Positions 1,468-50,351 are shown, numbered from the whole stretch's first letter. The stretch: 63,628 bases of DNA, filler included, from Welwitschia mirabilis (GCA_051453625.1; 7 parts of one record of this genome joined end to end with filler, not necessarily neighbours in it); one strand, 5' to 3'. The notes: generated by a model not told the origin, from the sequence alone. Program-made: numbers and translations.

Positions 1468-2720
1468 ATCTTGTGTTTTTCTCGTTCTTGCTATCCTCCT
1501 TGTCCTTAATTTCATCAAAAAGGTGGAGAACACATTGTTATTTTTTATCTTTTATAAGCATCAATGTAAAATGTATTTCTTCGCTTGTAATTCAACATGT
1601 CTGATTAATACAAAATGTTTTTTGTTATGAAAATCTCTCTTATCTACACTAATTTTTCTTTCCTTCAAAACTCGTATAAATTTAACTTGATTACAAATTT
1701 ATTTGATTAAGGGGGAGTCCCACATGTCCAATTAATGTTTTTCCTCAGTTAATGATAAAGGGAGAGTTTGTTGAGAATCTATTATCATTAATCAAATTAA
1801 TGATTTTTTGTGGAGTTAGTCATTGTGCAAAGATTTTCCAGCACTTGGTGACTACTATATAAATTTAGACAATTGACTAATTTTATGAACATACTCTAAA
1901 CATAAAGTAAGGGCAATCGCATACTACCTAGAATCGACCTTAACGAGGTCGACCGATTGATCAATTGAGGGTGATCTAAATGAGGTCGACTGCATATTTA
2001 CTTAAGCGAGACCAAACGTTCATTTGCACCAGACTGATAAATTTGCATCAAGCAAGGGCGGCTGAATGAATTAACTTAGGGCAGCCGAATGTTCCTATTT
2101 AAAATTGTGAGAAATCTAAATAAAAAAAGGGTGACTAGATTAAATGAAGAAGGGCAACCGAATACTATGATGACTGAGCATATCTTAAGGTTGCCTTGCC
2201 TTATTACAAATATAACTATTATATTTTTTCAGTTCATCCAAAAAAGTGCGAAATACACTACAACGGTCCACTTCTTTTCTCTCAAAGTTTACCTTTTGTG
2301 ATTTCTCTATTTAAGTACCTTTCCATTAGAATGAAGAATACTTTTTGATGTACATAAAAAGAAACTATTACATCAATCATTCAATACCTGAACGACTGTG
2401 AGTTCAAATTTCTGTTTGAGCTTCTTCGTAGTTCATCTCTTATAAGAGCTTGATGTATTGCTTGTTCTTGTGGAGCATATTTGTACCTTTGTGCACTTAG
2501 CTTACTTTCTTTCCATTGTGGTTATAGATTAGTCTAAAAATCCTTTATGATTGAATAGGTTTATGATGAGCGTAAAAACCATTCTTTGAGGTTAATATAT
2601 GCCAGCCAGAGACTGGTGGCNNNNNNNNNNNNNNNNNNNNNNNNNNNNNNNNNNNNNNNNNNNNNNNNNNNNNNNNNNNNNNNNNNNNNNNNNNNNNNNN
2701 NNNNNNNNNNNNNNNNNNNN

Positions 2721-8116: not shown

Positions 8117-8779
8117 CTTACCTTCTTCTTTCCCTTAAGAATCCTTCCCTCGTTAGCTAGAGTTTTCCTATCACCCAACTCTTCCTTTATTGATTTAGAG
8201 ATGGAGAAAATTAATGGAATGATTTATTAGTGTAATATGATTTGTTTATTCTTTATACCATTAAAGACTATTATACTTTAAGTCTAATAAGAAGAAACAA
8301 GTTTATACAGAATAGTAGCTGAGAATCTAGAATTATATCCTCTTTGCAAGTAAACTATACATCAAGCTCAAGCTATAAAACATGGAAATATGTACTTAAA
8401 GAAATGATAGAATTGTTCTAAGTAATACTCCCATCACTTTTACTACTCTAGGTTTACCTCCACAACTGAGCTATTCCAAAAACTGAAGATCACAATGACA
8501 ACAATATCCAATTTATTAGTGAAAACTATTACATTAATAGAATTCCTATAGATATCTATTAAGATCTTATTAATATGTTAATGGTAACTTTAGATTTTAA
8601 CAAATTTATTAATAATAAATAATGATCCATTATGTAAAATGATAATTGCACTTAATGAATAAGAAAGTTAGAAACATGGCAAGAATGTTGATTATATTTT
8701 GTTTACAATGAAAAATAAAGTCTACTCTCTTAAGGAGAGTGAACCCTACTACTAGACATTTTAAACATGCATAATTAGT

Positions 8780-11700: not shown

Positions 11701-12680
11701 CTATGTCACAGAGTGTAACTTCCACCAACATTTAGGTGGACTTTCAAAAAAAGATGAGATTCCCATAGATATAGTCTACAAAAAAAGCTAAGATTTTCAT
11801 AAATATAATATTAGAATTTAAACCACTTGACATTTAAGGAATTAACTTCACAGGATCTTTTCTTAAATCAAATGATTATCAATACGTCATTATATGTGTT
11901 GACTATGTCATAAAATGGCAGATGCCAAAGGATCTAAAACATATGATGTTAAAATAGTTGTTGAAGTTTCTAAGGTACAAATTTTATAATGTTTTAGCAA
12001 TACAAATCATGAAACCCACTTTGTCAACAAAACCATGAATACGTTTAATGAATTTAGTAAGAATCATGTATAAGATTGCCACAACCTATCATTCATAAAC
12101 AAATGTCTAAGTTGAAAATTTCAATTGAGAGATTAAAAGAATATTAGTCAAAATGGTTAATTCAAACAAGAAGTGGTATAAAAAGTTGAGTGATTCATTG
12201 TGGAATTATAGAACAACATGGAGAAACTCATTAGGCTATACTCTATATTAACTCATTCATAGAAAATAATGTTTATTACCAATAAAAATTCAACATAAAT
12301 CTTGAAACTTGATGTAAAAATTGAACCTCAATAAGGAATATAACATTTTAAAAAAGAAAACCACAACTAAAAATTTTAGATTATATAAGTTATCATGTAG
12401 TGAAATAACAATGAATTTTGATAAAACAGCTAAAATACCATCATGATGTTAAAAAAAAATTTACAAGAAAGAATTTTAATTTTAGTGATAAGATTTTGTT
12501 ATATAACATAAGATTACAAAAGTTATTTGGAAAACTAGCTACCAAATGGAAAGAAATTTTAAGGCCATAATAAAAACTAAAATAAAGTCATTATAATTAA
12601 AAACCTAACTGACAATAATTAGTTCATCATAAATAGTTAGTAAGTAAAAATATATTATAAAAAAGGTAGTATAGGTTCAT
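8780..12680 (+). pseudogene. Degenerate Ty3/gypsy (Athila/Tat clade) gag-pol: protease-RT-RNaseH-integrase
   Basis: Motifs in order across broken frames: MTRSEK (~8780), PFPRRLK (~8990), ALLNLGTNINIMP (protease, ~9270), IIHPISNSKW, KKDHF, MPFGLSNAP (~10420), IFMKDFS (RT, ~10510), FDLMCDT (RNase H, ~10940), integrase GINFTGSF..YVIICVDYV.KW (~11840) and TTYHS.TN..VENFN.EIKRIL (~12080). Gypsy domain order, with many stops and frameshifts. Confidence 0.92.
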
Positions 12681-12739
12681 ATTAATCTTAAATAAATAGC
12701 TAACTTCCATTAACGCTTATAATGCTCATTGTCGTTCAC

Positions 12740-15192
12740 ATACCTAAGCGAGTGTGAAAACCCCAGTGAAACCCTAATAGTGTGCTTGTTTTAAAAGCAA
12801 GCTCTTTGGTGTAATAAAGGATGGAGAAATAAAGTTCTATTTGAATTCCTTGAGAGCTTAGAGCTTTTTTGAATTTCTGGTTTGCCGTTTTATGCTTTTT
12901 TCCCCTCCTTTTTTGGGCCTCTTTTTCACCTTCTTTGGCTCTTTTTCAATTTTTTTTCCTTGTTTTTAAGGCTTCTTTAAAACATTTTTTTTGTTATTCT
13001 GGTTTTTCCAGGTGTTGACCTACATTAACCTGCAGCTGTACTACCTACATTAACTCATGACCCCTGCGTCTGTGCACCTTGCCGTGCTCATAACCCTACT
13101 TTCACAGCTGCATCTCTGGTCTAATCTGACCACTGCTACCTGCATTTACGCCTGCATTTTAGTTGTGGATCGCAGACCATCGCTTCTATTCTTTCACAAT
13201 ACCCATTAAGATCTAGTGATTCTGGTGTTTTTTGGCATGTAAGAGGATTTACCTAGTCTTTATGTGAAGCCTGCATTAGCAGTGTTATCTTATCACCATT
13301 AGATTTCTGTGTGCTATTTGCGTCGAGGGATCTTAAAACGCTTACCGCTGGCAGATGTTCTATGCATCACAGCATGCCCTTCTGTTGCAAGTTTTGTAGC
13401 TACCCTGCTCATTGCTGTGCATGCTTTCCTGTCTGTCTACGATTTGCTATCTGTCCTTCTTATTGCTGTGTATGCCTTCTGTCTCTCTGCAATCCTTGTT
13501 TTTCTTGGCATTTTCTTTTTAACGACGGTGTTTTATTTTTGGTAGTGCCACTACCATTTTCGTAAAAGGTTGTCAGCCACTCCCCTCACAAAAAGGAGCA
13601 GGCTAAACAGTCTATTATCTCATATTAAATGAGATGTACAAGTGAAATGCACACCACAAATTTCAAACTGTATGTCATATGTCATCACCTCAATGCATGT
13701 AGTACAGGACTTGGGAGGCAGTTTAGCTTCTTCGTCACTAAAATGCATTCTTTGGAATAAATGTCGCAGTCAAAGTTTCCTAGCATATTGCATGAATATC
13801 AGAAATTAGATTAATTACAAATAATTGATTTTATACTCCTTTAGCAAATCTCTGTGAAAATGTCTTCAACTAAAAGCATTTTTAAGGTTGAGATTAGAGT
13901 AAGGACTGGAAGCTAATTTGGAGGAGCAATGAATCACGTGGATCGAAAGTGCATAACACTCCATTAGCCATTGTATGATGGTTAATGCATCCACTTAATG
14001 GAGGTCGCATCATCATTTTCTAGCCCATAAATTCGTTTTAGCTTCTAGTGAAAGAAAATTTTTTCTTCTCTTAATTTTTGATGTCCATGTTAACCATACA
14101 TGTGATTCTTGGCTTGTCAGTTTTAATTGGGTACATGTATCCTAGTGCTTAACTTTGGGCTAGTTCTAGTTTTGCGCACATGTAGTTTTGTAATGCACAA
14201 CCATTACTTAGTTTTGGCACACATACAATTTAGCTAGCCATTGTCCAGTTTTTTACTCTGTTACACACACATGCATAGTTTTGTACATTTCTGTATTTTT
14301 TAGTTTTTTAAGCTCTATTTTGAGTTTTTTTCAAAATTGTAAACAAAAAATTCACCTTTAATCATCAAATCAAGTTGGAATGTTGAATAAGATCCCTTAA
14401 TTTGATTTGTAGAGCTCTTTTTCTTAGTTTTCGATCTTCTCTTTTCTCCTTTCTGAGATTTTTTTTTTTCTTGTTGATATTTTGGAATTTTTAAGTTTTG
14501 TAAGCCAAATCTCTCACATCAAGTCAAGTTGGTGTGTGAAACAAGATTCCTTAACTTGATTTTCTTTCATTTTCTCAGGCTTAAGTCTCCTTGTGATTTG
14601 GATAAATTGAGTTGAGTAGGAATGTTGAGCAAGATCCACTTAACTTGACTATACCAAGTTCTATACCTTTTGTCTCTTTCTTGTATTTATTTGCGTCTTT
14701 TTTTTATTTTTCTTTTCTTTTCTCACACACTTAATAATTTTAAAATTAATCATGATTAAAGCTTTAAAAAGGAAAACTACCTTCACCACAAATACTTAAC
14801 AATTTTACTAGTAATAGGTTTTTATGGGTGCAGGCACAAAAATCCTTATGTAGCTAGAGATCTGTGTCAGGCTTTACGGTATCTTCTGAAAAAGCTTATT
14901 ATGTAGTTTTAATTGCCATAATTATAAAGTTCAGGTTGTATGAATAGCCATGTCTCTCGTAAACAGAAATGTCTCAGGCACCCTAAGGTTAACATTCCCA
15001 AGGGCACACTCGATGAAGGCCAAAGGCATAATGGTAGCGTCCACTTAGTTTTCATGATCGGGGGACATTGGTTTAATAAAAATTTAAAATTTACTAAGTC
15101 CAAGATATAACTAGGTCATTAATATTATATGACACTCTCCCTTAAGTGAGGTATACAATTAAGGTAATCAAAATTGGCTGACGCCTTAGAAG
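12740..15192 (+). mobile_element. Ogre/Tat-like LTR fragment, interrupted near its 3' end by the copia-like LTR at 15193
   Basis: Non-coding. Layout resembles the reverse complement of 6314-8116 (CAAGTT..CTTAA motifs, GGGTGC..AATCCTT ~14826, TGGCTGACGCC ~15175). Boundaries uncertain. Confidence 0.4.
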
Positions 15193-15719
15193 TGAAGATT
15201 CTAAAACTGCTGAAACATCATTTAATATGAAATTAAAAAAAATACTAATTCTTCAAACATGGAGGCCCCAATCCCTGGCCATGTCGGGGACAATGGTTGG
15301 GCACCTTTTTCATTAGCTCTTAATCATTGTATTTATACATGATTTTGCTCCTATAATAGGCCATCTTAACTTGGAAGTGCTTATAGATTTTTCTTATCAA
15401 GATCCACAATTTAAGGATCACATATAACTAATTTTCCATTGGGACTTTTGACCAAGAAACTCCCCTTTGTGTCCTTCATCTTAGATCCACATTTGATGGA
15501 TCTACATTTATCATTTATTAAATAAGGAATTTGACTTAACCAACTTCCTTGATTCTCTCAGCTTAACTAAATCTCTTCCCTCTTAGACTTTTGATTTTCC
15601 CTAACATTATTACTTTGTTACATTTTAATTGATACCAATATATTAAAATGTTGACATTACATATGCCAAATTTATCCAACATAAAATGTTGGCGTTACTT
15701 GTACTTAAATATCCCAACA
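15193..15719 (-). repeat. 3' LTR of element A
   Basis: TGAAGA...CCCAACA. Shares GAGGCCC.ATCCC..GCCATG..GGGACAATGGTTGGGCAC..TTTTCATTAG with 32345-32763. Confidence 0.8.
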
Positions 15720-15732
15720 AGCTCCCCCTTAA
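15720..15732 (-). promoter_or_regulatory. Polypurine tract (PPT) of element A
   Basis: AGCTCCCCCTTA on the + strand (AAGGGGGAGCT on minus) abuts the LTR. Confidence 0.8.
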
Positions 15733-16210
15733 TGACAACATTTTATACACCTCCTTGATGTGTGCACTATTCAATTTCATGTCACACATCTTACAACATT
15801 CAAGGACTTATCCCAAGATATTGCAAGGCCAGTTATGTACTCCTAACAATTCTTGAAATTACTTTAGGATATTTCTCATTATTTCCTCTTTTGATGGATT
15901 GCTCATGGCTCAACTCACATGCTTCTAAAGATTTGCTCCTCTACTACCCTTTACTTCACTCTCTTTCCTCTAGAGTGGATCATGATCATCAACTAACTAA
16001 CTAACTAGATTTATTGTGCCTTATTTCCAAGTTCAGGCTATAGAAAATACAAAACATGATAAATGTAACTTGAAAAGGGGATCAAGATGCCTTCTTTACA
16101 TTCCAAACCACTTATAATATACTTTTCAATGGGGTTTACAAAATATGGAATTTAAAACCCTTTGTTGGCATAAAATTAGTTTTACCTCACCCCCTTTACA
16201 ACCAAGGGTA

Positions 16211-16536
16211 GACTCTAATACCATGGGTAGTTGTAAGAAATCTAGCATAGATGAAAGCTATGGAAAAAGGGCAATAAAAATAGCTCAATTTTATTCATTC
16301 TTTGACACAATTTATACATTTTAATACACGAAATCTAACATCAACAACCTCCTAAAAATCTAGGTTTGGTGACCCATCTTTGAACTCAAAAATTACTTAA
16401 GACTAAAATGAGGCTAAACTAAACTAAGCTTAAGCCACCTAATTTGGATTACATAAAAATCTCTCTAACTAACTAGATTTACTCCTTAATAAGGCCTTAA
16501 CTAGTTATGTAATGTGTGTTAAATATTCCCTTTACA
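16211..16536 (-). mobile_element. Small copia-like LTR fragment with PBS, inserted in element A
   Basis: GACTCTAATACCA at 16211-16223 (TGGTATTAGAGTC on minus, a Met-type PBS) is followed by TGTAAGAAATC...CCCTTTACA (16232-16536). Confidence 0.4.
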
Positions 16537-18231
16537 CGAAATCAAAATAACATAACTAAGGATTGACACCTAAGGAGGTGATCAAGATTCAGAACTTACA
16601 CATACAACAAAAATCACAAAATGAAGTCAAAGCTTAATGATACATGATTTTTAATTGCATTACAAAGTTTTTGTAGTTGATGGTGTAAATCTCAACAATC
16701 TCTCCCTTGACACTAAGGATACAAATAACAATGATTGAATCAAGTTATAGTTAATACTTCCCTTTGGCGTTATTTACAAATATTTATTGTAAATACCATT
16801 GAACAACTGTCAACATATTAGCTATATAACTTTCCCAAACAACCATATAATCAAAAGGCTTATACATCACAAGCAAGTATTGTTACTTTAATTCTAAACC
16901 TACATTTACCTTTTAAAAACCCCAAAAAAACTTTCATCAAGGAATATTAAATTAAAATCCATGTACACTCAAAGCTTATCAAATAATCAGATTATCAAAA
17001 GTCTTACAAAAAGTAAAGGCTAATTGGCTATAATATAATTCTAAATAACCAACTTAACAAGAGCCATTTTCAAAACCAAATATTTTACCCTTGGGGAGTT
17101 ATAATTTTTAATGAAAATTGAGAAAATAATTCTTAATTCCAATTGTATGCAAATCTAAAAATAAACATTAACTAACTGGTGTAAAGCATTCTGAAATACT
17201 ATTTCATAAAAATGTCTAACTAGTATTTAACTACAAATTGGTATTATGTGAAACCAGAATAATCAAATCAAATTAATATCCAATTGGTATGATAAACTAG
17301 TATTTAAATAATCAAACTAGGATTCTTTATCACAAATCATTCTTTAAGTCTTTCAAAAATAATATTCAAACTCAGCAAATCCTCATAAACCTTTTGAGAG
17401 GACTATCTTCATAAATCTCTAGTAATGACACAAGGAAACTATATTTTACATGTTTCAAGAGTGTGAAGAGAAAAATATGCATTGAGATTTCAAAAAGAGA
17501 TGATTGTATATTCAAATGATATAATTGTATAAATGATTCTTAAAGCACAAAGTTCCAGGAATAGTGTTTATGTATTCCAAACATTTCCATAATAATTAGT
17601 TTACTTGTACTCTAATAAAAAACCTCAAACCTAAACTAGTGGATAATAATTTCAAGCAATAATTGGATAATTTTTAATTCCTAAGCATAATAGAAATGTA
17701 TTCAAAATAGTGATATTGAAGCAAGAATTAGATTCAAATAACTAATTAAATAAAGTAGCTGCAAGGTATTATTTCAACTTCACAAATCTAATTTGTCACT
17801 GTGTAGACAGGAATCTTCTCATATGAATTCATGGACCCTCAAATGTGATAAATCTAGTGATTTGGAATGAGATCCCTAATCACTTGCATGACCAGCTTCA
17901 GAATGATGATGTACAAATTTATTTCCAAAGAAATCAAATTTGTAGCAATCCAGGAATAATGAAAATACAATTTGAAGGAATGAGAGGGTGAATGTACATG
18001 GTGATCTACATAGCACAATCCTTCAGCTCAAACAATAGAGAATCATAACTAGCTGTCTTTACGTCGCTTCTGTTGTCCACTATGAGACAATACCATAGCT
18101 CAAAATAAAAACTTCTAGTAATCAAAGTAATTCATTCAAATTGTAGAATGCAAATAATAGACAAAATAAAAACAACAAATAATTTCTTTCTATTAAAAAT
18201 CTTCTTATTCTTTCAAAACAAAAATAACAAA

Positions 18232-18325
18232 AAATGATAACTGCATCTTTTGAAATAATAAGAAATGAACAAATAATGAAATGATAACTGCATCTTTTAA
18301 AATAATAAGAAATGAACAAATAATG
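18232..18325. repeat. Tandem duplication, 2 x 47 bp
   Basis: AAATGATAACTGCATCTTTT(G/A)AAATAATAAGAAATGAACAAATAATG occurs twice with one mismatch. Confidence 0.95.
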
Positions 18326-19719
18326 AAAGATTAAAAACCAAAATAAGCAACACTAGGATAAGGCCTTTGAATTCCATCCCTTTACTTCTCCAAACATCAT
18401 TGAAGATATCAAAAGTGAAAAGCCAAATGCACCAAACATGTAACCACTGAATTTTATCTCCTAGAGCTCTGCTATATCCTTTATGTTGATTTCCTCTAGA
18501 AATCAATGCTTTTAAAAATAATAATAAATAGTGAACAAATCACATACAAACTAAAGGTTACAATTAAAAAGATGTGTGACATACAAGAACAAGATTAAAA
18601 CTACAGAATGAAGGTAGAGTTTACTTTGACTTTAGATTTAATAAGCAAATATCTTTGAGAGCTAATACACTTTAAAAACAAATGAATATTAAAGGAAAAT
18701 GCTTTATCTATGTTTCTCTCTATCAGCCAAGTCAAAATAAAATAATCCAAATGGAGGAACTTGCTTTACCATTAGGGGTTCTAATGTAGTTACAACATTG
18801 ACCTCTTGTGAGTCCATGTAACTGCCTTCATACTTTTTTTCTTATCAAAAGACAATATCTTATCAAAATCCAATAATGTGATAGAGTCCGCAAATTGGTT
18901 ACTTTTATCTATCATAATACAATTCCATCAACTCTGAATGTGGCTCATTTCTGAGTGAGAGAAATGAAACCGAAATAATTAATAATAGGATATTCTCTAT
19001 TTACAAATTAGACATACATGTAGAGCATTAATCCTTTTCATTAGGAATTAGAAGTTCTTCCATTAATCAAACATAACATTATTTCAAACAGACTTTTGAA
19101 GGAAATTTACAAAAACTCCAAATAAAGGCCTTCTCTGAAATTAGTGTCTTTAATAGGAAAGAAACTCAATTGTTAATTAATTCATTAATTGATTATTTGT
19201 AATTCAGATCTACTGTATTAGATCTATACATATGTGCACTAGTGATTCCTCCAAAACTCGTTTAACTTGCAAAAGAAGGATACCTCGAAAGGAAAAGCAT
19301 ACTATCTGGTAGATCCTATTCTCAAATCGTTGATATCCTATCCCTGTTTGATATCTCTACTAGAGTCCTCATTTGAAATAGCTAGATGCATGCTTGAAGC
19401 ACTACCAGTGGAGCTTGTAGTATTAAACATATCATTAGAACCCAAAAGCAAAAATGCTTCTCATTTTTCCCCAAACAAATATCAAGCACTAATTAAGAAC
19501 ATGATAAAAACTAGCATAGGAATAATCCATAGCACTATATTGAATTCTAACTTATACACAGGCAAATTAGACTAAAACATTATAATATAATCCTCATCGA
19601 GTCCAACAATAACTAGTTTATTATGATTGAAGGCAATCAAGCCCTAATTTTACTACTGATCAGTAATGAAATCTTGGTTAAATAGATAAATAATATCCTC
19701 CAAAGTTAAATGGAAAAGG

Positions 19720-20734
19720 TGAAGGATTTACAAACCCTTGGAAAGAGGTAAATAGGTTTTATAAGACAAAAATTATCAAATGAAATTTAATGAATAAAAA
19801 AATATGCAAAATAACTGAAATGAAAATACCCAAGAATAGCGTTAGATAAATGATTTATAGTGGTTTGGGAAAAGCTACTTCACTCTCAGCTATCAGCTTC
19901 GATCCTAAGCTAATTTGGATCCTTGTTGCTTTCTTTCTAGGTTCCTTAGTCAACCTATAAAGCTTATAAGGACTTATGAGGCTCAATATCAATCTTTATA
20001 GAGTAAAGCATTTGATAAGGATAGTATACTTAAATGCATTAGATTCATTAGATCTGAAGTACAATGAACATTGAATACACTGCTGAAAAGAAGTTTACCC
20101 GTATATGCTCATATAGTGCAGTGGATTACTTTTTAACTAATAAATATCAATAATACAAATATGCTTTTTTTTAAAAAAATAATTGGTGTCAAAGATTCCT
20201 ATTATTTTGTCTTATATAGGGGATATATTTTTACATTGAAAAACGAATATGATACTTTAATGGTTAAGTATGGCAAAGTTAATGGTTAGAAAATATTTTG
20301 AAAAGTTCCATTTCTGCTATGATTAGTCAACTCCTAGAAATGTTTAGTTGACTTGATTGGTTGCTATTATTGAAATTAGTCGACTCCACTTTCTTTTAGT
20401 CAATCTAATTGTTATATATCACATGGTTTAGTCAGCCCCATTTAGTGTCTAGCTGACCCCTGATAACATCTGATCAATTCCACTTAAGTTGTACTAGTTT
20501 CTTTTTATAAGGTTCGATCGAGCCATTATGAGATCTAGTTAACTGCTTTTGTCTATATCTGGTCTACCCCTTATAGAGTCCTACTGATTCCTCATCAATT
20601 TCAATAGTTTTCTAGGTAAGAGTGAGATCTGAGAAACTTCTGACCTATAATACTTTATTAACTTAATATATGTGCAACACATTAAGCTATACTAAGTATG
20701 TTAGTTTGAATCAATTTGGCAATATAACTTAACA
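19720..20734 (-). repeat. 3' LTR of element B
   Basis: TGAAGGATTTACAAACCC...AACTTAACA; aligns along its length with 30408-31449. Confidence 0.92.
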
Positions 20735-20750
20735 ATATCCCCCTTTGACA
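20735..20750 (-). promoter_or_regulatory. PPT of element B (further PPT-like tracts at ~20812 and ~21090)
   Basis: ATATCCCCCTTTGACA abuts the LTR; multiple PPTs are a Sirevirus hallmark. Confidence 0.85.
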
Positions 20751-21139
20751 TTAATGGCAAACTACACTTGATTATACATAAGATTATTAATCTAATAGAA
20801 ACTTTTGTAGAAACTCCCCCTAATGATATGTCATTAAAAAAACTTTATGTATTTCTAAGTAATAAAATAATTTGTTGCTCATTATTATATATTATTAATC
20901 ATAAAAGCAAGGTAAGAGACATTTTGATGATCATTTTACAAGTAATAGACTATTCATTACTTTTAATAAAGCTACTATAACTAATCATAACAAAGAGAGT
21001 GAATAGATTTTTTGATACAACAAATATCTACAACCATAGAAACACAACAGAAAACAATAACAGTGCAATAACAATAGTGCAATAATTTTTTCTCCTTTTA
21101 ACATCAATTCCAAAGGAGAGAAACAGAGACATAAGAACT

Positions 21140-22190
21140 CAATATAACTTCTTCTTCTCTTCTGATTTGTTTTTAGATTCAGGATCATCCTCTTCTTCTT
21201 CCTTTGTTGCTGCTTTATGCTGAGAACTACTAGCCTCCTATACAGTGTTAGCAATCTCATATCTTGTTGCCACGAGAGATTCTTTCACGTGATGAGCATT
21301 AGAGTTTGGTATTTTAAGGTAAGAGAGGATCTCATTAGAAGATTATGTTTTGGAAGAAGGAGATTTTGAGGATTTCTTTGTGCTAAAAAAGATATGCATA
21401 TGAGAGAGAGTATCACATCCTATAAAAGAGATTGGGATTAAAGCTTCAAGCTTTGGATGAATATGAACCCTAAAATGCTAATAGATTTTGGTAATAAGAA
21501 GAGAATAAGGAAGAGCCCTAGCTTTATAATATTCTAGCTAAGAGATCATATTTTTAAGATAATAAGAGGAGCATCAATGATATGAAGAGTTCAAAATAGA
21601 TACAAGATATAAGCTCTAGAGTTAGAGGTCTCATCACAATGACTAGCAAGGGGTAAAAATTTATAAGTAAAGACAAGATGTAAAAACTTATATTTTGGAA
21701 TGAGATATGATGTAGCAAGTGTGGTTCTTTAATGAATTAAATTATTAGAGAATTTTCTAGTGACTTTACCCTTATCCTCCATGGAATCTCCAAAAGGCCA
21801 AAACTTCTCATAGTACCCCTTGAGGAGATTTGTGGATGAAGCTATCACATCTAATGTAATATTCACATGCCTTCCCAATACAAGTGTGGGGAAAATGGAG
21901 AAATCAACATCATAGGTTGCAATTGTGTAAAACATGTAAGTAAGAAAAGGGCATGTTGAACTAGATAAATCAAGAAAATAAGATAGATCTAGCTCATTGA
22001 TGACTCTTACCATGTAATCAAGATTTTGTAATTCCCTAAAAGCAACCATATGTTCTTAGCAGATAGGTTTCCTATCAAATTTCTTTGTGAACCTTTCAAT
22101 AGCTTCATCTGACATTCCTAACTAGAAATATGATGGATCTCTGCTAGCTGGCATCTTCTGATGAGATCTTCTAGAGGACCCCTCTACCAT
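21140..22190 (-). pseudogene. Sirevirus extra (env-like) ORF, putative plant transposon protein domain (Transposase_32-like)
   Basis: ATG at 22190 (MVEGSSRR...). ORF 21729-22049 has PFLTYMFY..TLVLGRHVNITLDVIA, then KYKFLHLVFTYKFLPLASH..ALPYSLLITKI. Lies between pol and the PPT; homologous to 50625-51110. Confidence 0.7.
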
Positions 22191-22599
22191 TTTACAAATA
22201 TGATACTTATTGAAGACAAAAAAGAGGGAGAAAACTAACAAACAAAGAGAGAGATAGGTGAAAGATAGGTGGAAATGAGAAAAGTAGGGTTCAAAAATCT
22301 TTTATAAGAAAGTTCAAATAAGTTATTTTTAAGGAAAAAAATGAGTGCATCACCTTTCTCCCATTGAAAATCCTATAGGTTCAATTAATCAGATTAAGGT
22401 TCGGTCGATTCATCGAGATGAACATTAATTTTACTCTAGGTCCAATTGACTGAAACTTTAGTTCAGTTAACCTGACTTGAATCAGATATTCCTAGAATAA
22501 GTCTAGGTAATCAGGATAAAATCTGGTTAACCCAACATTTCCAAATCTAGTTGACTAAATTGAAAATCTCATTGACCACCCTACTTTTAGTTAGAGGAT

Positions 22600-24962
22600 G
22601 ATGACAAAACCCCTAAATCACATCTAAGAATCATATACTTGTCAAAACTTATGGGTTTTATGAAAATATTAGCTAGCTGTTAGTCATTATTTATGAAATT
22701 CATGGAAATATTGCCTTTTTCAACTTTATCTCTGATAAAATGATATCTAAGTTTAATATGTTCAATATGAGAATGATGAATAGGATTTTTTGATATATTA
22801 ATTACACTTGTATTGTCATAAAAAATGGGTACCGAATCGTAGTTAATTTCAAAGTTCTTAAGCATTTCCTTCATTCACAGAAGATGAGTACAATAACTTT
22901 TTACTGCTATATATTTTACTTCTGCTATGAAAAGAAAAATACAATTTTATTTCTTACTTACCAAAATTACCAAACATGATATAAAAAAAAAGCAATTTCC
23001 ACTTGTGTTTTTCCTATTGTTCTTACATCTTGCCCAATATGCATCATTAAATCTTGTAAGTTCAAAAGATGTTTCTTCTGGATATCATAACCCATAATCA
23101 CTAGTGCTTTTTATATATCTTATGATTCTTTTGACAGCTTGACGTGATATTCCTTAGGATTTACTTAATATCTAGCACACATAACCACATTAAACATTAT
23201 ATTAGGTCTCCTAGCTATTAAGTATAATAAGATTCCTATTATGCTCCTGTAGAGTTTTTGATCGATTGATTCTTCATGCTCATCAAGACTAACTTTACAT
23301 GATGTTTACATTGGAATGATGGTTGATTTTGTATTCTAAAGCCAAATCACTTTACCAACTCCTTAGCATACTTTAATTGAGAAAAGAAAATGCCTATTGA
23401 TTTTGCTTAATTTGCAATCCTAGAAACATGGTTACTCTCCTAACCTCATGTCAAAATGAGTTGTCATGATGTTAGTAAACTCTTTTGAGAGATCCTCCTT
23501 TGAAACATCAAAAATTGTATCATCAACATAAATCTAAATAATAGTGAATTCTTACTTAAGTTTCTTGACAAAGAGAGTTTTATCTACAGCTCTCTTGCTA
23601 TAACCACTATCCTTAAGAAAGGTTGTTAAGTTTTCATACCATGCCCTAAGGGCATGTTTCAATCCATCTAAGGCCTTTTTAAGTCTATAGACATGGTTTG
23701 GTTTATGCGGATCTATGTACCCTTTTGATTATTCTACATATACCTCTTAATTGAGAATATCATTCAAGAAAGAACTTTTTACATTCATTTGAAAAACTTT
23801 AAAATTTTTAAAGGCTATAAATGAAATAAACATTCTAATGCTATGTAATCTACCCACCAGAGCAAAAATGTCTTTTACATCAATCCCTTTAATTTGATTA
23901 TAACCTTGAGCCATTAGTCTTGCCTTATTTTTAATCACATTATTGTGTCAATCACATTTGTTATTAAAAATCCACTTTTTTCCAATTACATTTTGATCCT
24001 TAGATCTTTTCACTAACTTTTAAACATCATTTCTTTTAAATTGTTGTAACTTCTCTTACGTTCATGAGCTTCAGCCTCTTCATGTCTCTTAGGTTTAACT
24101 TGAGAGACATAGAATATATGAGTACAAATATTTTTAAGAGAATTTTAGTCGGCATACTTGAGTTTACGTCTCCAATAAATAAGTCAAGAGGATGATCTTT
24201 TAGTTATTTAAAATGCTTGAGAGTTGATTCTTGTGTTGTGCCATTTTTGTTTCTACTTGTAACTTCATTGTTAGTCATGATATTCTGGGAGAGATCTTCT
24301 TCATCACTTGTAAGAAGAGGTAATTTGTACCTTTATGGATTCTTCTAATGTTAGACTTCATTTGTTGAAGAACTTATAATCTCTAATTCTAGTTGAGTAT
24401 CTAAGAAAAATTGCTTTATCTATCTTAGACTTGAATTTACTCAAATGTTCTATTTCTTTTAAAATAAAGCACTTACTTCCAAAGACTTTAAAATAAGATA
24501 CATTTAGTTTTCCTTTCCATAGCTCATAGAGATTTTTATCCATGTCTAGTCTTAGATATACTCTGTAAATAATATAACATGTAGTACTTACTACTTCAGC
24601 ACAAAAGGGTTCTGCTACGACCTTATCATTTAGCATTGTTCTTACCTTATCTTGAAGAAAGCTGTTTTTCCTTTCTGCTACTCCATTTTGTTGTGGAGGA
24701 TTTGGTACTACAAACCGATGTTCTATTCCATTTACCATATAATATTTTTTAAAAAGATGGTTTTCAAATTCTTCTTCATGATTACTTCTAATTTATTTAA
24801 TAAAATACTCCTTGTTATTCTGTATTTGGTTGTATATTTCACCATATCTTTTAAAAGTTTTAGCCTTGTTTTCTAGGAAAGTAATCCAAGTAAACCTAGA
24901 GTATTCATTTACCATTGTCAAAAAATATCTTTTTCTAGCCAGGGTTTTAGTTTGAGAAGGAT
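22600..24962 (-). pseudogene. Copia pol, 3' part: integrase core, reverse transcriptase, RNase H
   Basis: PQQNGVAERKN (ORF 24358-24738), KNKARLMAQGYNQ..VFQMNVKSSFLN (23747-23938), IYVDD (~23525), DAYWARCKNNRKNTSG (~23030), PIFYDNTSVINISKNPIHHS..HIKLRYHFIRD (22680-22874). Confidence 0.95.
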
Positions 24963-27900
24963 TGTTATAATCCACATTTTGTGAGCTTTAATTAATAGAG
25001 TTTCTAAACTATGTAAAACATTTTGATATTAATTTTAATAAAAATCCCTTTTAATTATTAGTGAGAATTTATGTGTAATCCTATAATCAATAATGTATTC
25101 TATGTCAAACATTATAGATACTCATAAGGTTACTTAATTATTTAATCTTAGTTATGGGTAATTTATTATTTTAAGTTATAATATTGATTATAAAAATTTT
25201 AATACTAAAAAGCCTATTTATGATTAGGCAAGTTATTTTCTATGTTTAAATAGTTAAATCGAAAAAAAATCCATGTCAAAATGTAAAATAATATCTACAA
25301 AAAAAGGGCATGTGACATATTTATTTTAATCATTCATTCATATGTCTTATTCAAGATTTAAAAGAAACTAAAATTACTTGGTAAAAGTGAAAGAATAATA
25401 AGTAAAAGTACTATGTTCAACTATAACAATTTCTTAAATTCAATTATGACATTTTCTTACAACCCATTATGACATTTTTCTTACATTTAATTATGGCATT
25501 CATTTTTTGTTATTTGTTTCGTTGATATGATGAACAATGAAGAGTATAAACATGTGAATAAGGACATGCACTCTTATTCATAAATTAAAAAGAATAAATA
25601 AGTAGAATTTATTATACCATAACTTTTATCCTTATTGATATTTGTGAAAGTAATCTATGTATAAAATATTATTTTTCTTGTTGTATTACATGACCATTTT
25701 GGAGTTGATGCATTTGTTCTTCCAATGCATTTTAAATATGTTCTGAATTAATTATGAGCCTATGAAGGATTAAGAAGGAAATAGAATGAGGAAATGATGC
25801 ATGTAATTAATCTTACTAATTTAAGCAAGAAGATTACTTACCTAAATTANNNNNNNNNNNNNNNNNNNNNNNNNNNNNNNNNNNNNNNNNNNNTTAATTA
25901 ATTAANNNNNNNNNNNNNNNNNNNNNNNNNNNNNNNNNNNNNNNNNNNNTTTTGGCTAAGTGACCAGAGAATTCACTATGATTTTGGATACCCATATTGT
26001 GTTTTATTTTATTATTGGTTAAATGAATTTTACGTCATAGTTTCATTAGAGTCTTATTTAAGATAAATGAGTCTGATCCTCAAGAATATATTTAGGCTAG
26101 GTGCTCCTTCTCAGAAAATCCTAAGGCTCATGATATTGATGCATTATTTATTATAATTCTATAGTAATTCTAATTATTTTATTTACTTATAATACAAATT
26201 AATAGTCAATTTAAATGATTTTCAATCTATAAATTAGTATGATTTCTCTTATTCTTAGTTTAGACAAAGTTTATCATTTATTCTTTTAAGTCAAGCAACT
26301 TAAGAAAGTTATAATTTATTTAATACTAAGTAAAATTTTATAAATTTTTTTTTAGGTCTGTAATTATGTTAGAAAGTTAANNNNNNNNNNNNNNNNNNNN
26401 NNNNNNNNNNNNNNNNNNNNNNNNNNNNNNNNNNNNNNNNNNNNNNNNNNNNNNNNNNNNNNNNNNNNNNNNNNNNNNNNNNNNNNNNNNNNNNNNNNNN
26501 NNNNNNNNNNNNNNNNNNNNNNNNNNNNNNNNNNNNNNNNNNNNNNNNNNNNNNNNNNNNNNNNNNNNNNNNNNNNNNNNNNNNNNNNNNNNNNNNNNNN
26601 NNNNNNNNNNNNNNNNNNNNNNNNNNNNNNNNNNNNNNNNNNNNNNNNNNNNNNNNNNNNNNNNNNNNNNNNNNNNNNNNNNNNNNNNNNNNNNNNNNNN
26701 NNNNNNNNNNNNNNNNNNNNNNNNNNNNNNNNNNNNNNNNNNNNNNNNNNNNNNNNNNNNNNNNNNNNNNNNNNNNNNNNNNNNNNNNNNNNNNNNNNNN
26801 NNNNNNNNNNNNNNNNNNNNNNNNNNNNNNNNNNNNNNNNNNNNNNNNNNNNNNNNNNNNNNNNNNNNNNNNNNNNNNNNNNNNNNNNNNNNNNNNNNNN
26901 NNNNNNNNNNNNNNNNNNNNNNNNNNNNNNNNNNNNNNNNNNNNNNNNNNNNNNNNNNNNNNNNNNNNNNNNNNNNNNNNNNNNNNNNNNNNNNNNNNNN
27001 NNNNNNNNNNNNNNNNNNNNNNNNNNNNNNNNNNNNNNNNNNNNNNNNNNNNNNNNNNNNNNNNNNNNNNNNNNNNNNNNNNNNNNNNNNNNNNNNNNNN
27101 NNNNNNNNNNNNNNNNNNNNNNNNNNNNNNNNNNNNNNNNNNNNNNNNNNNNNNNNNNNNNNNNNNNNNNNNNNNNNNNNNNNNNNNNNNNNNNNNNTTT
27201 GAAAGAATTACTCTAGTGTAGAAAATTAAAGAGATTTTTTCTTTCATTTATTTTAATTACTAAACTTTGAAAAATGTATGATTTTCTTTTATGAAAAACC
27301 AAGAAGATGCTTGTACATTATATTTTTATTCTATATGATTATTTACTTAAAACGAACCCAATGATGATTAGAATTATTTTTATTAGGTAAACAATTCATT
27401 AAATATCCACGTATTTTATGCTTGCATTTTTATAGTGTATTAATTTAACTAAACCAAGATAATCTCAATAATTATTCATCCCCATACTTGGATTTCATCA
27501 CTAAGGTGTGTTGCATTATACGTTTATGTCCAAACCCTTCTGGAAGTGGATTTGATCACCACTATCCTATCCTACCCATGCAGGGACTTACTTCGACTTA
27601 ATATATCAAGCCCTTGGTATCAAAGGATCATTTTGCAATGCTTCAAGGAAGTGGAGGTCACTTGTAATTATGCATCCACCTCACGTACTACCTGTCACCT
27701 GTATTAGGGGTATATCGAGGTGAAGTATAAGCCTATAGAGTTGAGCCCAGCCATGTTTCTATAGTCTATAACCTAAAGTAGAACTAACTCACATTTGGAG
27801 GGTAGCTAGATATCAAGTTGAAATGCCATTAATAGAGGATGCAACCTCTTATTATATTGGTTAGGCACTATTATAAAACTTATCTATTGTACTTTATAAA

Positions 27901-28170
27901 ACAAGTTAACATCTCATTAACTTTATAAAAGATATTGTTTTGTGGTGAAAACAAAGTTAAAAATAAATATAGGACACAATTTTGACATTGTTAGTATATG
28001 CAAAATAAAAGGTTTATAGTTAAGTAATAATTATTTTTTTTAATTATTTTAAATTTTATAATATATGAGTCTAAATAGGATTTAATCCTAGGTCCTATTG
28101 TGCATGTTAGTTAATAATACTTTAAAAAAAAATTATAGTTAATTAGGGTAATCGAAGTTAGGCTGTTACA
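24963..28170. mobile_element. Solo LTR of a Ty3/gypsy element (Tekay/Del-like) inserted in the Sirevirus integrase
   Basis: TGTTATAATCC...GGCTGTTACA termini and a perfect 5-bp TSD AGGAT (24958-24962 and 28171-28175). Removing it restores LIHMNLVDP|SQTKTLARKRYFLTMV. Confidence 0.88.
25850..25949. other. Artificial contig linker N44-TTAATTAATTAA-N44 (12-mer also at 35742, 50531, 58258, 60766, 62162)
   Basis: An identical 12-mer with stops in all six frames sits centred in N runs six times. Confidence 0.97.
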
Positions 28171-30370
28171 AGGATCCACCAAATTCATATGAATAAGTTT
28201 AAGGGGCATTGTTATAGAGAATAAGCTTCTACTTTTATGGGAGGTTCTTATTTGTTTTCATTTTGGCATGCATCACACAACCTATGTTTATCAATGTTGA
28301 TTCTAGGAATCCCTCTTATGGTTCACTTTTCAATAATGATCTTAAGTTAATCATAGTTTATGTAACCTAAATGTTAGTATCATAACACTTCTTGATTTAC
28401 ATGTGAAAAATAACAAACAGAAGAGGGTTGATCAATACTATACACATTGTTAATTCTATTTGCTTTAAGAAGAACCTCATCTATTTTACTATGTCTAACT
28501 TCATATTTTTGACAATAAAAAATAACTCTATGGACTTTGTCACAAATTTGACTAATACTAAGTAAATTATATTTAAGACTATTTAAATATAAAACTTCAT
28601 TATTTTTAAACATGTTACCTTTACTAATGCTTTCAAATTTTGCCTTTTTGTCATCACCGAATGTTACTTCTCATCCATCAACACTTCTTGATTTGTCATT
28701 TATCATATACCAAGAACACCCAGTATTTAAGTACTAATAAGTTTCACTACTAGTCTTAAAAGCTATTTTAATTAATAAGCTTTTTAAGTTATCAGCCCTT
28801 ATCCATTTAGTTCTTTTAAATTATTGTGGTACAGAAGTTTTAAAAATAAATTTGAATAGGAAAGTACTAGTATCACTTTAAAAAAATATAACTTTTTTAA
28901 ATTTGCAAAATAATTTTGAGTGACTTGATTTTTTCAAAAAAATGATAGGTAACCTTTGAAATGAAATTATTTTTTTTGCCATGTTACTTAATTAGAGGAA
29001 GTAAGTACTTTTGAGGAGGTGAATCCAATATGTCTTTTGTTATAGAATGTTTTTTCTATTTCAACAATTTGTTCCAATTTGCTAAAACTATTAGAAAATT
29101 TACTTACAAAATGAGATAGACTTTTTACCTCTTGAATTAGCTTTGTGTTCTCCATTTAAATTTTCTTATAAGTGGTCTATAAAGCTTTAACTTTCTTGTT
29201 AAAAGACTTTACTATTTTGTTTAGCTCATTTATCCATTTAACTAACTTTTCACATTCTGAGTATAGCTCTTAACAAGTGTCTTCTAATTCTTCTTCTCCT
29301 ATCTCTATGATATCTAGATCATCCAGTTCGACTAAACACAGTGCCTCATTTAAGTGTGAAGCTAATAACATAAAAGAGAGTCTTTTATCTCCCTTTGTCT
29401 CTTGACTAGAGCTATTGTCTTCTTCCTCATTTACATTATTCCAAGTAGTTATAAAGGATGGTCTCTTAGATTATCTCTGATCCCTTTTGTTATTAGAACA
29501 TTCATTTGCCACATGTTCATATCCTTTATAATCATATCACTAGATTTCCTTTTCTTTACCTTAGCTTCAATTGACTCCTTCTAGATCCCTTACTTGATTT
29601 TCCATCTCTTCTTTCCTATGAAAGAACTTTTTGAATCTTCTTATTAAAGATGCAACCTCATCCTCATAAAGATCATTATCTAATCTTTCAAAGTTGGCTT
29701 TCTCTTACACACTTTCTAATGTAAGACTTTTCTTCTTATCTTTAGAAAACTTTAATTCATAAGTTTGAAGATTACTGTATAGATCATCTAGGACCATCTA
29801 GTTGATGTTTTTACTTTCTTCATGGTAGTGACCTTTGTCTCAAAATGCTTTGGAAGGGATATTAAGACTTTTCTTACTACTTTGCTTCATCCATCGTTTC
29901 TCCTAGGCTTACCATCGAGTTCACTATATTTGTTAGTTTAGCAAAGAACTCTTAAAGAGTTTCTTCCTCCTCCATATGAATGTCTTAGAACTTGGAGATG
30001 AGCATCTGTAATTTTGCTTGTTTTACAGTGGATGCACCTTTATAAGCTATTTTAAAAATTTTTCACACTTCTTTGGTAGATTTGAAATTTACAATCCTTT
30101 TGAATTCTTTTGAACAAACTACATAAAAGATCACATTAAGAGCACAAACATCTATGGTTTTCTTAGCCTTATTAGTAGGAGTCCATTGGTCTCCCAATTT
30201 CACAATGGTCTTAGTGTTTCCACTACTATCCATTTTAGTTACTGTAGGTTATTCATACCCATTGTAAATAAACTCTTTTATGTTAACACCAAGGGATCTA
30301 AGGAAAACTTTCATCCTAGACTTCCAATAAGCATAGCTAGTTTCATCAAACAATGGTGGCTCTTATGCTA
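28171..30370 (-). pseudogene. Copia gag, protease, GAG-pre-integrase and integrase N-terminus of element B
   Basis: PPLFDETSYAYWKSRMKVFL (~30300-30360), degenerate zinc knuckle YDYKGYEHVANEC (~29500), *YLNTGCSWYM (protease, ~28720), LKYNLLSISQICDK (ORF 28380-28613), CDACQ and LKLIHMNL (~28180-28280). Confidence 0.92.
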
Positions 30371-30392
30371 GAATCTACTACCGACTCAACTT

Positions 30393-30405
30393 GGCTCTTA
30401 TACCA
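30393..30405 (-). promoter_or_regulatory. Primer-binding site (tRNA-iMet type) of element B
   Basis: GGCTCTTATACCA (TGGTATAAGAGCC on minus), 2 nt from the LTR. Confidence 0.88.
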
Positions 30406-30407
30406 AA

Positions 30408-31449
30408 TGGAGGATCTACAAACCCTAGATGGAGGAGGGGTGAATAGGTTTTACAAGATAAAAATAAAAAAGGAGACTGGAGGATATCAGATGAACTTTA
30501 ATGAATAAAAGCATGTAGAAATAACTAAAATGAAAATATCCAAAAAGAATATTGGACAAACTATTTATAGTGCTTTGGGAAAAACTCCTACTTTGCTTTT
30601 AGCTGTTAGCTTTAACCCTAAGTTGATTTAAATCCTTATTGCTTTATTTCTAGATTTCTTGGTCAACTTGTAACCTTTGCAAGTGGATTTTTAAGGCTTA
30701 GTCTCAGCCTCTATAAAGCAAAGTGTTTGGTAAGGATAGTATGCTTGAATGCACTGGATTCATCAAATATGAACTAATAAAAATTAAATACATTACTAAA
30801 AAGAAGTTAATAAGTACAAGCTCATACATTATAGTGGATTACTTTTAACTAATAAATATTAATAGTACAAATGTGCTTTTGTTTTTTAAAAATAATCGGT
30901 GTCAAAGATTCCTATTCTTTTGGCTTACATAGGAGACACATTTTTACATTGAAAAATAAATTTAACACTTGAACAGTTAGGTATGACAAAGTTAACAGCT
31001 AGGAAATATTATGAAAAGTTCCCTTTTTGCTATGACTAGTTGACCCCTCAAAACATCCAGTCGACTTGATTAGTTGTCATTACTAAAGTCAATCAATCCA
31101 ACTTTCTTTTAGTTCATTTGATTATCTTATGTCACGTGGTCTAGTTGACCCTATCTAGTATCTAGTTGAATCCTCATAGCATCTGATCGATCCTACTTAA
31201 GTTTTTCTAGTTTTCTTTTTTCAAGGTTTGGTTAACCCCTCATGAGATCTAGTTAACTACTTTTGTTCAAGTCTAGTCAATCCCTTATAGAATCCCATCA
31301 ACCCCTCATTAATTTCAATAATTTTCTAGGTAAATGAAAGATTTGAAAAACTTTTGACTTATAATACTTTATTAACCTAAAATATGTGCAACATATTAAG
31401 CTATACTTAGTATGTTAGTTTGACATCAATTTGGTAATATAACTTAACA
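30408..31449 (-). repeat. 5' LTR of element B
   Basis: TGGAGGATCTACAAACCC..GAGGGGTGAATAGG (Sirevirus U5 signal)...AACTTAACA. Confidence 0.92.
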
Positions 31450-32330
31450 AAAGATACCTAGAACTAGCAGAGTGAACATAATTTAAAGAAGTGGAATTAA
31501 AAGCAAGGATCTTATCTGAAGTCCTAAAAAGAATGTAACCTTTAATTGCTTTGAAGCTAATCATCTAGTTTTGGACTTGCAGAAGCTTGATTGGACATTT
31601 TGAACTAACTCTACACTTAAATTTTATAATATCTTTCCTAAAAATAACATGGACGATTTCCTCCTCATTCATTACACAATATTCTTTGAATTGCTTCGAA
31701 GTATCAAACATGCATGCTATGGCATGTGATCCATTGAGATCTTCATAGGTGCTAACGCAAATAGTTATTGTTCTTAGATTCAAAGACATAACTTCATTCT
31801 TTGTTAAGATAAAAAAAACTCTACTTTAGGGCCCTAAGAAGCCAGCTAGAAAGAATTACAGAGTCATGCAAAGCTCCATTCTTAAGAAAAAAGAGGGGCA
31901 ACAGGGAGGGAGACGGGGAAGGAGGGGGTCAAGGGCTCAAAATCTTTTGGAAGAGCTTAAAAGATCTATTCTTTGATTTATCCTTATGAAAATATCATTC
32001 TAATTGTAGATAATCCTTTCTTCCTTAGATTTTAGTAGGGACTAAGACATAGATCAGGAAAATTCGGGTCCTTTTTTCGCTCAAATTTCAAATGGCATTA
32101 ACAAATAATAATCATAGTATCATTTGTAAATGGCCTCTGAGAAAACATGTAACACTTTGTAAAGGTAATAATTGTAGAATAGATAAGTGAGGTTTTTAAA
32201 GCACTAAATATTGAGATGTAAGATTTAAATAATGGTGAATAAGTGAGGTATGAAAGATTTGACAGAGGTAAAAAGGCATATGCAATTCTATCACAATCCT
32301 CGGGCTAGCGATGAAGCCATTTCCTAGCCT

Positions 32331-32342
32331 ACTCTGATATCA
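32331..32342 (-). promoter_or_regulatory. Primer-binding site (tRNA-iMet type) of element A
   Basis: ACTCTGATATCA (TGATATCAGAGT on minus, two transitions from TGGTATCAGAGC), adjacent to the LTR. Confidence 0.75.
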
Positions 32343-32344
32343 TG

Positions 32345-32763
32345 TGAAGACATAAAAAACTACTAAACCATCATGTAAGTAAAATTAAAAATTACTAATT
32401 CTTTAGACATTGAGGCCCTATCCCCTGACCATGCTAGGGACAATGGTTGGGCACATTTTTCATTAGTATTTAATCATAAGTTATACATGATGTTGGGAAA
32501 ATAATAGTTCATCTCAATTAGAATGACCTAAGAATTTCTTCACTTATATCCATAATTTATGGATCATAAATGGTAAATTTCTTATTTGTTTTTTTTTAAA
32601 ATCAAGAAACTCTTGTTAATTCTCTCAAATTCCCACCAATCTTGGACTTTTTAGCTAAGAGAATGCTAAAGCTAAACACTTGCTTGCCAACATTATATCT
32701 TTGATATCTCTCTTAACCAACATATTAAAATGCTGGCATTAGCTATGCCAAATTATCCTAATA
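32345..32763 (-). repeat. 5' LTR of element A
   Basis: TGAAGA...ATCCTAATA (terminal CA>TA); homologous to 15193-15719. Confidence 0.8.
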
Positions 32764-32989
32764 ACCTCAATTCCTTATACTAATACATTTACTTCGTAAC
32801 CAATAGGAATTGAGGAAATTGGTGCTCATAGCATGCTTGATCATGGTTCCAATAGAAATTTAGTACGTTCTCCAACTAAAGAAGCTGATACTACCCATAG
32901 ATGATGTCTAAGTACTTAGCTACAATACACTATTCAACATATTCACAATCATGAAAAGGAAAAACCTGAAACTATGTAAAACTCTTATG

Positions 32990-50248: not shown

Positions 50249-50351
50249 GGATGTGTGAATGTCTTAAGATTGAATAAATCCTATCTTATCACTGAAATGC
50301 GGATGTGTGAATGTCTTAAGATTGAATAAATCCTATCTTATCACTGAAATG
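50249..50351. repeat. Perfect 51-bp tandem duplication with 1-bp spacer (possible gap-filling artefact)
   Basis: GGATGTGTGAATG...CACTGAAATG at 50249-50299 and 50301-50351. Confidence 0.9.

Follow-up and report, generated by a model that had tools for sequence, protein, structure and literature searches.

The question raised by this locus is whether two long terminal repeats (LTRs) in the genome of Welwitschia mirabilis enclose a spliced gene of host origin or only the remains of one. The DNA analysed, hereafter the window, is a stretch of 63,628 bases (4,574 N in 32 runs), and the two LTRs lie on its minus strand at 32343..32764 (5′ LTR) and 15192..15719 (3′ LTR). A first-pass annotation had taken the DNA between them as an LTR element in which gag-pol is replaced by a four-exon gene for a WD40-like propeller protein. 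We find instead that the coding DNA is a single 3′ fragment of an MHZ3/MHL1-type gene, split by a nested Ty1/copia element and broken in frame 13 times; the region shows no sign of present function and is, by every test applied, inert genomic debris. With a probability of about 0.55 the whole represents a single, dead, chimeric non-autonomous LTR element that acquired the gene fragment. The object is real but ordinary, and it was misread as a spliced gene. The GC content of the window (29.6%) was compared with the value of ~29.07% given for Welwitschia, along with long-term deamination, in PMC8275611, and was counted in favour of AT-rich Welwitschia debris. Homology was searched by phmmer against 1.84 billion representative sequences, by tblastn on the whole window and by a family hidden Markov model (HMM) on its 3371 six-frame open reading frames (ORFs). 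DNA contigs from two runs and raw RNA reads from two runs (X14 and X17, about a quarter of each being read) were aligned to positions 15000-21000 with a likeness floor of 80%. None of the indexed RNA runs was listed as containing the stretch.

A decayed fragment of an MHZ3/MHL1-type gene

A phmmer search with the peptide of the first proposed exon, with stop codons entered as X, returned 24 proteins, the best being P0002 (E 1.1e-31, 58% identity, residues 333-451), a 630-amino-acid Welwitschia mirabilis transcriptome protein which was used as the intact parent reference. A search of this kind with the joined exons had been suggested as a check, and the significant match obtained here is to the At1g75140-like family. 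When P0002 was compared with the window by tblastn, a single colinear series of minus-strand matches was obtained (E 1e-48 and 2e-36), in which parent residues 311-340 fall at 31889-31800, 338-457 at 31807-31448, 455-599 at 19721-19290 and 600-630 at 19288-19196. The first part of the fragment (31450..31889, minus strand, parent residues ~311/314-457; 78/154 and 15/30 identities, E 2e-36) holds 2 stops and a frameshift near 31805. The second part (19193..19719, minus strand, parent residues 455-630 with the stop position; 86/145 and 22/31 identities, E 1e-48) includes the transmembrane helix region and holds 9 stops and a frameshift at ~19289. The stop at 19195-19193 stands at the position where P0002 ends. 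After dropping the last ~34 residues of the second alignment, which were noise lying within the Copia LTR, 195 of the 324 aligned residues are identical to P0002. The fragment thus corresponds to the 3′ 51% of the coding sequence, in one block broken only by the Copia element and having no start codon. Parent residues 1-310 were not found in the window, either by tblastn (E <1) or by the family HMM on the six-frame ORFs, although ~4 kb of the 30.8 kb lying upstream on the coding strand is N. Only four matches of the family HMM fell below E 0.01 among the 3371 ORFs (E 5.7e-16 to 1.3e-3); all four are within the two coding blocks, and all others have an E of 3.3 or more.

With 11 in-frame stops and two frameshifts (near 31805 and at 19289) the fragment has no open reading frame. 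Seven of the 11 stops are one transition (C>T or G>A) away from the codon to be expected for the parent residue (Q in five cases, W in one, and in one R to TGA), which agrees with the earlier remark that most stops are single C>T changes. Three R to TAG stops are two transitions away, and for one of them the parent CGG is visible in an RNA loose end. Over 15000-21000 the window mostly has T or A where the aligned reads, if they differ from it, have C or G (in X14, 115 T>C and 91 A>G as against 56 C>T and 44 G>A), and this excess fits deamination decay of the window copy.

The one interruption of the coding block is a decayed Ty1/copia element of 11.7 kb (19720..31449, minus strand), with LTRs at 20734-19720 and 31449-30408, ends TG..CA, its own primer-binding site (PBS) at 30405-30393 and a purine tract upstream of 20734, before the 3′ LTR. 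Its direct repeats at 19774-20735 and 30485-31450 are 78.3% identical over 974 bp (Kimura two-parameter distance 0.244), with a further block extending to 19720, and this divergence does not exceed that of the outer LTR pair, as nesting demands. Pfam matches for Retrotran_gag_2 (E 1.1e-8), the pre-integrase domain, SH3_retrovirus (E 3.5e-10) and RVT_2 (E 1.8e-42) follow the Copia order of gag, pre-integrase, integrase SH3 and RVT_2. The length, together with ~2.7 kb between RVT_2 and the 3′ LTR, is compatible with a Sirevirus; we place the element at the Ty1/copia level. Its target site duplication (TSD) consists of CCTTT downstream (19715..19719, minus strand) and TCTTT at 31454-31450, alike in 4 of 5 positions, so that an element nested at a TSD within the outer pair, as described before, is confirmed. 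The YLF codons of the parent occur on both sides of the Copia element and overlap both TSD copies; hence the insertion took place inside an exon.

This result is incompatible with four exons and three GT..AG introns, since tblastn finds one colinear coding block with the Copia element as its sole interruption. What had been called exon 1 is indeed host-derived and does start near 31880. The supposed intron 1 is made up of the Copia element and 233 coding bases (19721-19489). The GT at 19283, proposed as a splice donor, adjoins the frameshift at 19289 in the same exon, and the coding block runs on to 19196. Exons 3 and 4 (18996-18770 and 18508-18297) gave no significant match to the family HMM, to the C-terminal tails of homologues or to an HMM of these tails. 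Most homologues extend past the NYR motif with a conserved tail, and both P0002 and the window copy stop right there. A tblastn search with 9 tails past the stop yielded nothing better than matches of E 8-80 (for example 18838-18797 and 18162-18058), and with the tail HMM, made from 59 homologues, these matches and 19157-19134 all fell outside the 10 best of the 3371 ORFs. The latter site, ~38 nt past the stop and in another frame, is a weak tail-like match by eye. A tail relic in exon 3 was also considered, and was dropped after the tail tblastn and the tail HMM. Pfam on the exon-1 peptide gave sub-threshold chance matches only (Pentaxin, Staphostatin), and a protein atlas search with an 86-amino-acid ORF gave no usable match. 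Exon boundaries taken from the Brassica model P0004 were uninformative, as that model is homologous well upstream of residue 311, and the end of the Cryptomeria model P0098 after residue 379 was too weak a mark of an intron missing in the window copy, being one odd model. As a warning for annotation, a coding block full of stops and cut in two by a nested element can pass for a spliced multi-exon gene.

The parent family is that of MHZ3/MHL1 (At1g75140-like), a membrane protein of the endoplasmic reticulum (ER) with a seven-bladed WD40-like propeller. A word-based search with P0002 gave 66 relatives, 13 of them named uncharacterized membrane protein At1g75140 or At1g75140-like. None of the 66 carries the names At3g54190, At2g38630, FBIP or transducin; the first three are also absent from the 24 phmmer matches, and cluster look-ups agree. 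As described in PMC5877927, rice MHZ3, whose Arabidopsis homologue is MHL1 (At1g75140), is a plant-specific ER membrane protein of ethylene signalling which binds the Nramp-like domain of EIN2 and protects EIN2 from degradation; MHL2 is At1g19370, and the mhl1 mhl2 double mutant is ethylene-insensitive. The family to which the fragment had been assigned earlier, At3g54190/At2g38630, is given in PMC8537223 as FBIP1 and FBIP2, WD40 repeat-like proteins of 467 amino acids. Both families are predicted WD40-like propellers, but the one found here has 600-680 amino acids with a signal or anchor, a coiled coil and a C-terminal transmembrane helix, and it is set apart by names and descriptions. P0002 is a full-length member of it, and the window fragment, which is clearly similar to the family in sequence, keeps LLFLTE..SLDLR, IKGYxL, the transmembrane helix followed by GKKREA, and RRYxSPSRYP. 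Unlike the family proteins, the window has residues ~311-630 only, in a frame broken 13 times and with a retrotransposon inside, so that the full architecture (signal or anchor, coiled coil, seven-bladed propeller, transmembrane helix and tail) is not present and the protein cannot be encoded.

Pfam on 13 homologues gave sub-threshold propeller matches only. An AlphaFold2 model of P0002 from a 56-sequence alignment has a mean predicted local distance difference test score (pLDDT) of 75.7, with 28 strands within residues 162-505 (pLDDT mostly >90), a helix at 522-546 and a disordered tail. Foldseek matched the model to the WD40 propellers Ytm1, Lis1, PRL1 and WDR5 (E ~1e-11 to 1e-10, target TM-scores up to 0.74), and the beta-propeller fold that had been predicted is upheld on this basis. 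Going by the model, the fragment would encode 16 of the 28 propeller strands, the membrane helix and the tail.

The edges of the fragment have features of their own. Directly before the first homologous codons lies a stretch resembling the 3′ end of an intron (31881..31940, minus strand), pyrimidine-rich (49 of 60) and ending in AG; at least 49 pyrimidines per 60 nt are found in only 6 of 5783 windows of the outer element. Judged by its base composition, this stretch suggests a copy made from genomic DNA or from an unspliced transcript. At the other edge, ~170 nt past the stop match the parent mRNA and form a stretch like a 3′ untranslated region (UTR) colinear with it (19023..19192, minus strand). 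RNA reads <99% alike cover 19020-19220 at a depth of 6-10, and a loose end at 19101 goes on colinear but more diverged. At 19023 the parent mRNA departs, as seen in another loose end (9 reads, agreement 1), and the window has GTATGT at 19017-19012; the parent may be spliced at this edge (19017-19023), or the copied segment may end there. A resident dead paralogue, for instance a leftover of whole-genome duplication, would account for several of these features; its upstream exons would have been deleted or be situated outside the window, and the LTR pieces would be secondary. Like an internal exon, the fragment begins at a pyrimidine/AG stretch that resembles an acceptor, it is colinear with the parent mRNA past the stop, and an ancient whole-genome duplication is reported for Welwitschia in PMC8275611. 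We consider such a paralogue improbable, as the upstream DNA described above has no trace of residues 1-310, and as the bracketing of a sense fragment by a PBS-bearing and a polypurine-tract-bearing LTR would be left unexplained.

Outer repeats, foreign DNA and read depth

The outer 3′ LTR at 15192..15719 aligns to the 5′ LTR at 32764-32343, with 72% (199/276) and 76% (62/82) identity in local alignments. A PBS-like 12-mer of the tRNA-iMet type (32331..32342, minus strand) adjoins the upstream repeat and is two transitions away from the form seen on the RNA reads of the family. RNA loose ends at 15193 run on, by eye, into a PBS of this type, which fixes the end of the LTR. A polypurine-tract (PPT)-like run, read from the sequence, lies directly upstream of the 3′ LTR (15722..15730, minus strand). 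Both LTRs have the same orientation, the PBS lies behind the 5′ copy and the PPT ahead of the 3′ copy, and the outer anatomy and coordinates first described were borne out by self-comparison and sequence reading. No similarity runs past the 5′ LTR into the flank, as would be a sign of a tandem element, and no second copy of either flank was found within the window as an empty site. The flank at 15000-15191 is itself repetitive (summed depth 1500-2000, loose ends of 54-58 contigs at 15079), which places the outer element in or beside another repeat.

Between the outer LTRs and outside the Copia element, no Pfam family was found at E up to 0.1 in nine translations (six frames of 15600-19199 and three minus-strand frames of 31880-32400). 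This confirms the absence of gag and pol noted earlier, and the gag and pol of an autonomous LTR retrotransposon are thus missing from the space between the LTRs. The stretch between the PBS and the gene fragment (31941..32330, minus strand), with no Pfam match in its three minus-strand frames, may be leader, captured intron or both. At the other end, the DNA next to the PPT (15731..16209, minus strand) belongs, by its depth and by a sharp stop of homology at 16209, to the internal region of the abundant family of the outer LTR, of which it forms the 3′ end. It is followed by foreign DNA of no recognisable coding content (16210..19022, minus strand; Pfam null in six frames), moderately repeated at 16210-17411 and low-copy at 17412-19022. 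In all, ~4 kb of foreign DNA occupies the place expected for gag-pol.

The read comparison separates these parts well. The summed DNA word depth, which is not a copy number but differs strongly between regions, is 7400-13700 on the outer 3′ LTR (15192..15719), 2000-3800 on the internal family part (15804-16205), 38-170 at 16206-17411 (38-56 from 16206) and 3-28 at 17412-19622, where the second coding block lies and the gene fragment has 3-22; single unique contigs have 3.5-7.5 for comparison. RNA depth on the outer LTR is ~35-40 per direction in X14. From depth and RNA on the LTR and on the ~480 bp beside the PPT, both belong to a very abundant, transcribed family. At 16209 the loose ends of 5 DNA contigs (X5) and of 28 RNA reads (X14, agreement 0.97) coincide with the drop in depth; therefore the homology of the family ends there, and the DNA from 16209 to the gene fragment is foreign to it. 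The locus itself is shown by unique contigs with 0-1 differences, from a run that bears a second organism label.

Two further observations concern the foreign DNA downstream of the gene fragment. A tandem duplication of period ~47 bp, 96% identical, is present at 18232-18331. At 18417-18818, RNA reads from relatives align at a depth of 1-4 in both runs, none being at least 99% alike, and the DNA depth is low-copy; their source could be a downstream UTR exon of the parent gene or an unrelated low-copy transcript. Read joints of 16068 with 18255 and of 20984 with 18220 were treated as spurious, having low-complexity sequence and short sides.

No transcription of the chimeric locus was detected on 15000-21000, as none of the 669 (X14) and 290 (X17) aligned RNA reads is at least 99% alike to it. 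Translated by eye, the RNA loose ends at 19289 and 19566, from runs with the same organism label as the DNA runs that contain the window, give stretches of P0002, and the RNA on the fragment is thereby attributed to the intact parent gene or to other relatives. Among the 24 phmmer matches the sole close relative is this intact parent. Junctions between LTR and cargo shared by several copies, as in Bs1, were not found in a test that covers copies at least 80% alike on the 3′ side. A multi-copy LTR family that expresses a spliced four-exon propeller gene from its LTR promoter, possibly as a host-interaction factor, is scarcely credible. Points in its favour are the transcription of the LTR family, a cargo in sense orientation behind the 5′ LTR and a parent protein predicted to be a WD40-like propeller. 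Against this stand the faulty exon/intron model, a fragment without start codon or signal peptide and with little more than half of the strands of the modelled propeller, and the 11 stops, two frameshifts and Copia element within the exon. The multi-copy nature of the cargo had been set beforehand as a test, and the outcome (LTR depth in thousands, fragment depth near that of single contigs) is negative; also there are no RNA reads of the locus and no close relative other than the intact parent.

One chimeric element or separate insertions

We infer that both outer LTRs come from one element, since the half with the PBS and the half with the PPT, both of one family, follow each other in correct order and orientation, ~5.8 kb apart without the Copia element, with the host fragment in sense between them. 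On this account an element of the very abundant LTR family would have acquired the 3′ part of an MHZ3/MHL1-type gene, that is, the last ~320 codons, the stop and ~170 nt beyond. For the acquisition two routes are conceivable. One is that of retroviral oncogene capture, with read-through or template switching on a host transcript that was unspliced or only partly spliced; the other is DNA-level repair which copied genomic DNA into an integrated element. Afterwards a Ty1/copia element would have inserted into the captured exon, and finally methylation-driven C-to-T decay would have broken all the reading frames.

A number of results weigh against a single element. As had already been remarked, no TSD was found around it (the 5′ flank is ..TGAGG and the 3′ flank CTTCT/TCTAA, with no offset convincing), a test which decay of ~13% per copy weakens. 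The outer LTRs are only 64% alike globally, and their central part is unalignable. Over the 209 best-aligned bases their 41 differences are 21 transitions and 20 transversions, as compared with 151:40 for the nested Copia pair (Fisher p 0.0006); this ratio is unlike the prediction for in-place decay of two once-identical LTRs, in what is a small sample. At 11 positions where the 3′ LTR leaves the majority of the family, the 5′ LTR has the majority letter at 8, the same departure at 2 and a third letter at 1, although these positions are the best-supported differences picked by read comparison and hence a biased sample. No sister copy of the chimera was seen, copies of equal age being such as would drop below the 80% floor. 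The limits of family homology were traced on the 3′ side, by the reads on 15000-21000. Also the pyrimidine/AG stretch, taken with GTATGT at 19017, suggests from sequence signals that the fragment keeps introns.

These points bear on an explanation with no capture at all, in which a relict or duplicated MHZ3-like fragment received two separate elements of the same family, one on either side and in the same orientation, each of which was later mostly deleted. We regard this as possible, though clearly the less likely course of events. It would fit the lack of a TSD around the supposed single element, the likeness of only 64-76% between the outer LTRs, their 21:20 ratio, the majority letter of the 5′ LTR at 8 of the 11 positions and the abundance of the LTR family, and PMC8275611 describes frequent solo LTRs and removal by recombination in Welwitschia. 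The intron-like features at 31881-31940 and 19017 would likewise fit a fragment of DNA-level origin. On the other hand, it demands two independent insertions of one family in one orientation within ~5.8 kb, and two deletions which happen to leave a PBS-half and a PPT-half in order. Moreover, the best LTR block has only 41 differences, and if the pair is very old, a low ratio could also be due to transitions having become saturated.

Taken as a single chimeric element, the region resembles known cases of gene capture. In retroviral oncogene capture a 5′ LTR with leader is followed by the 3′ part of a host gene in sense orientation, and then by a short remnant of the 3′ internal region, a PPT and the 3′ LTR. 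The element layout here has the same order, but it is that of a plant retrotransposon with a dead captured piece, and helper-dependent spread is not shown. A full plant counterpart, in which an LTR element transduced the unspliced 3′ portion of MHZ3/MHL (intron remnant, last coding exon and UTR), and LTR-driven transcripts of the young element for a membrane-anchored half-propeller could have disturbed EIN2 stabilisation or set off silencing of the parent gene, is very improbable. Host gene fragments in LTR retrotransposons have been known since maize Bs1, which, as described in PMC13317346, is transcribed and translated and has three transduced segments. A 2026 survey (PMC13477047) gives ~400,000 gene fragments captured by transposable elements per gymnosperm genome, and non-autonomous LTR elements are described as numerous in Welwitschia (PMC8275611). 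With Bs1 and the gymnosperm captures the region shares a host coding fragment without full ORF, between LTR with PBS and PPT with LTR, and the lack of gag-pol. Unlike Bs1, it has a single fragment and possible intron remnants, it shows no expression at the locus, and nothing (no TSD, low copy) indicates that the chimera transposed. Since capture of gene fragments is very common in gymnosperms, the region is an ordinary kind of debris. It may still be a dated record of an LTR element gaining genomic, perhaps intron-bearing, DNA. This genome contains at least one partial, dead copy of the MHZ3/MHL ethylene-signalling gene; that such a copy could draw small RNAs to the parent gene is speculative.

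Other repeats in the window

Three other repeats were observed outside the region. Direct repeat blocks at 1406-2620 and 2723-4141, 79-80% identical and flanking a 100-N gap, may have arisen as the two LTRs of an old element or by tandem duplication. At 50249-57215, short duplications which are 90-100% identical adjoin 100-N gaps on both sides and look like artefacts of scaffolding or gap closing. An inverted repeat of ~620 bp with 72% identity is formed by 59928-60549 and 62272-62894.

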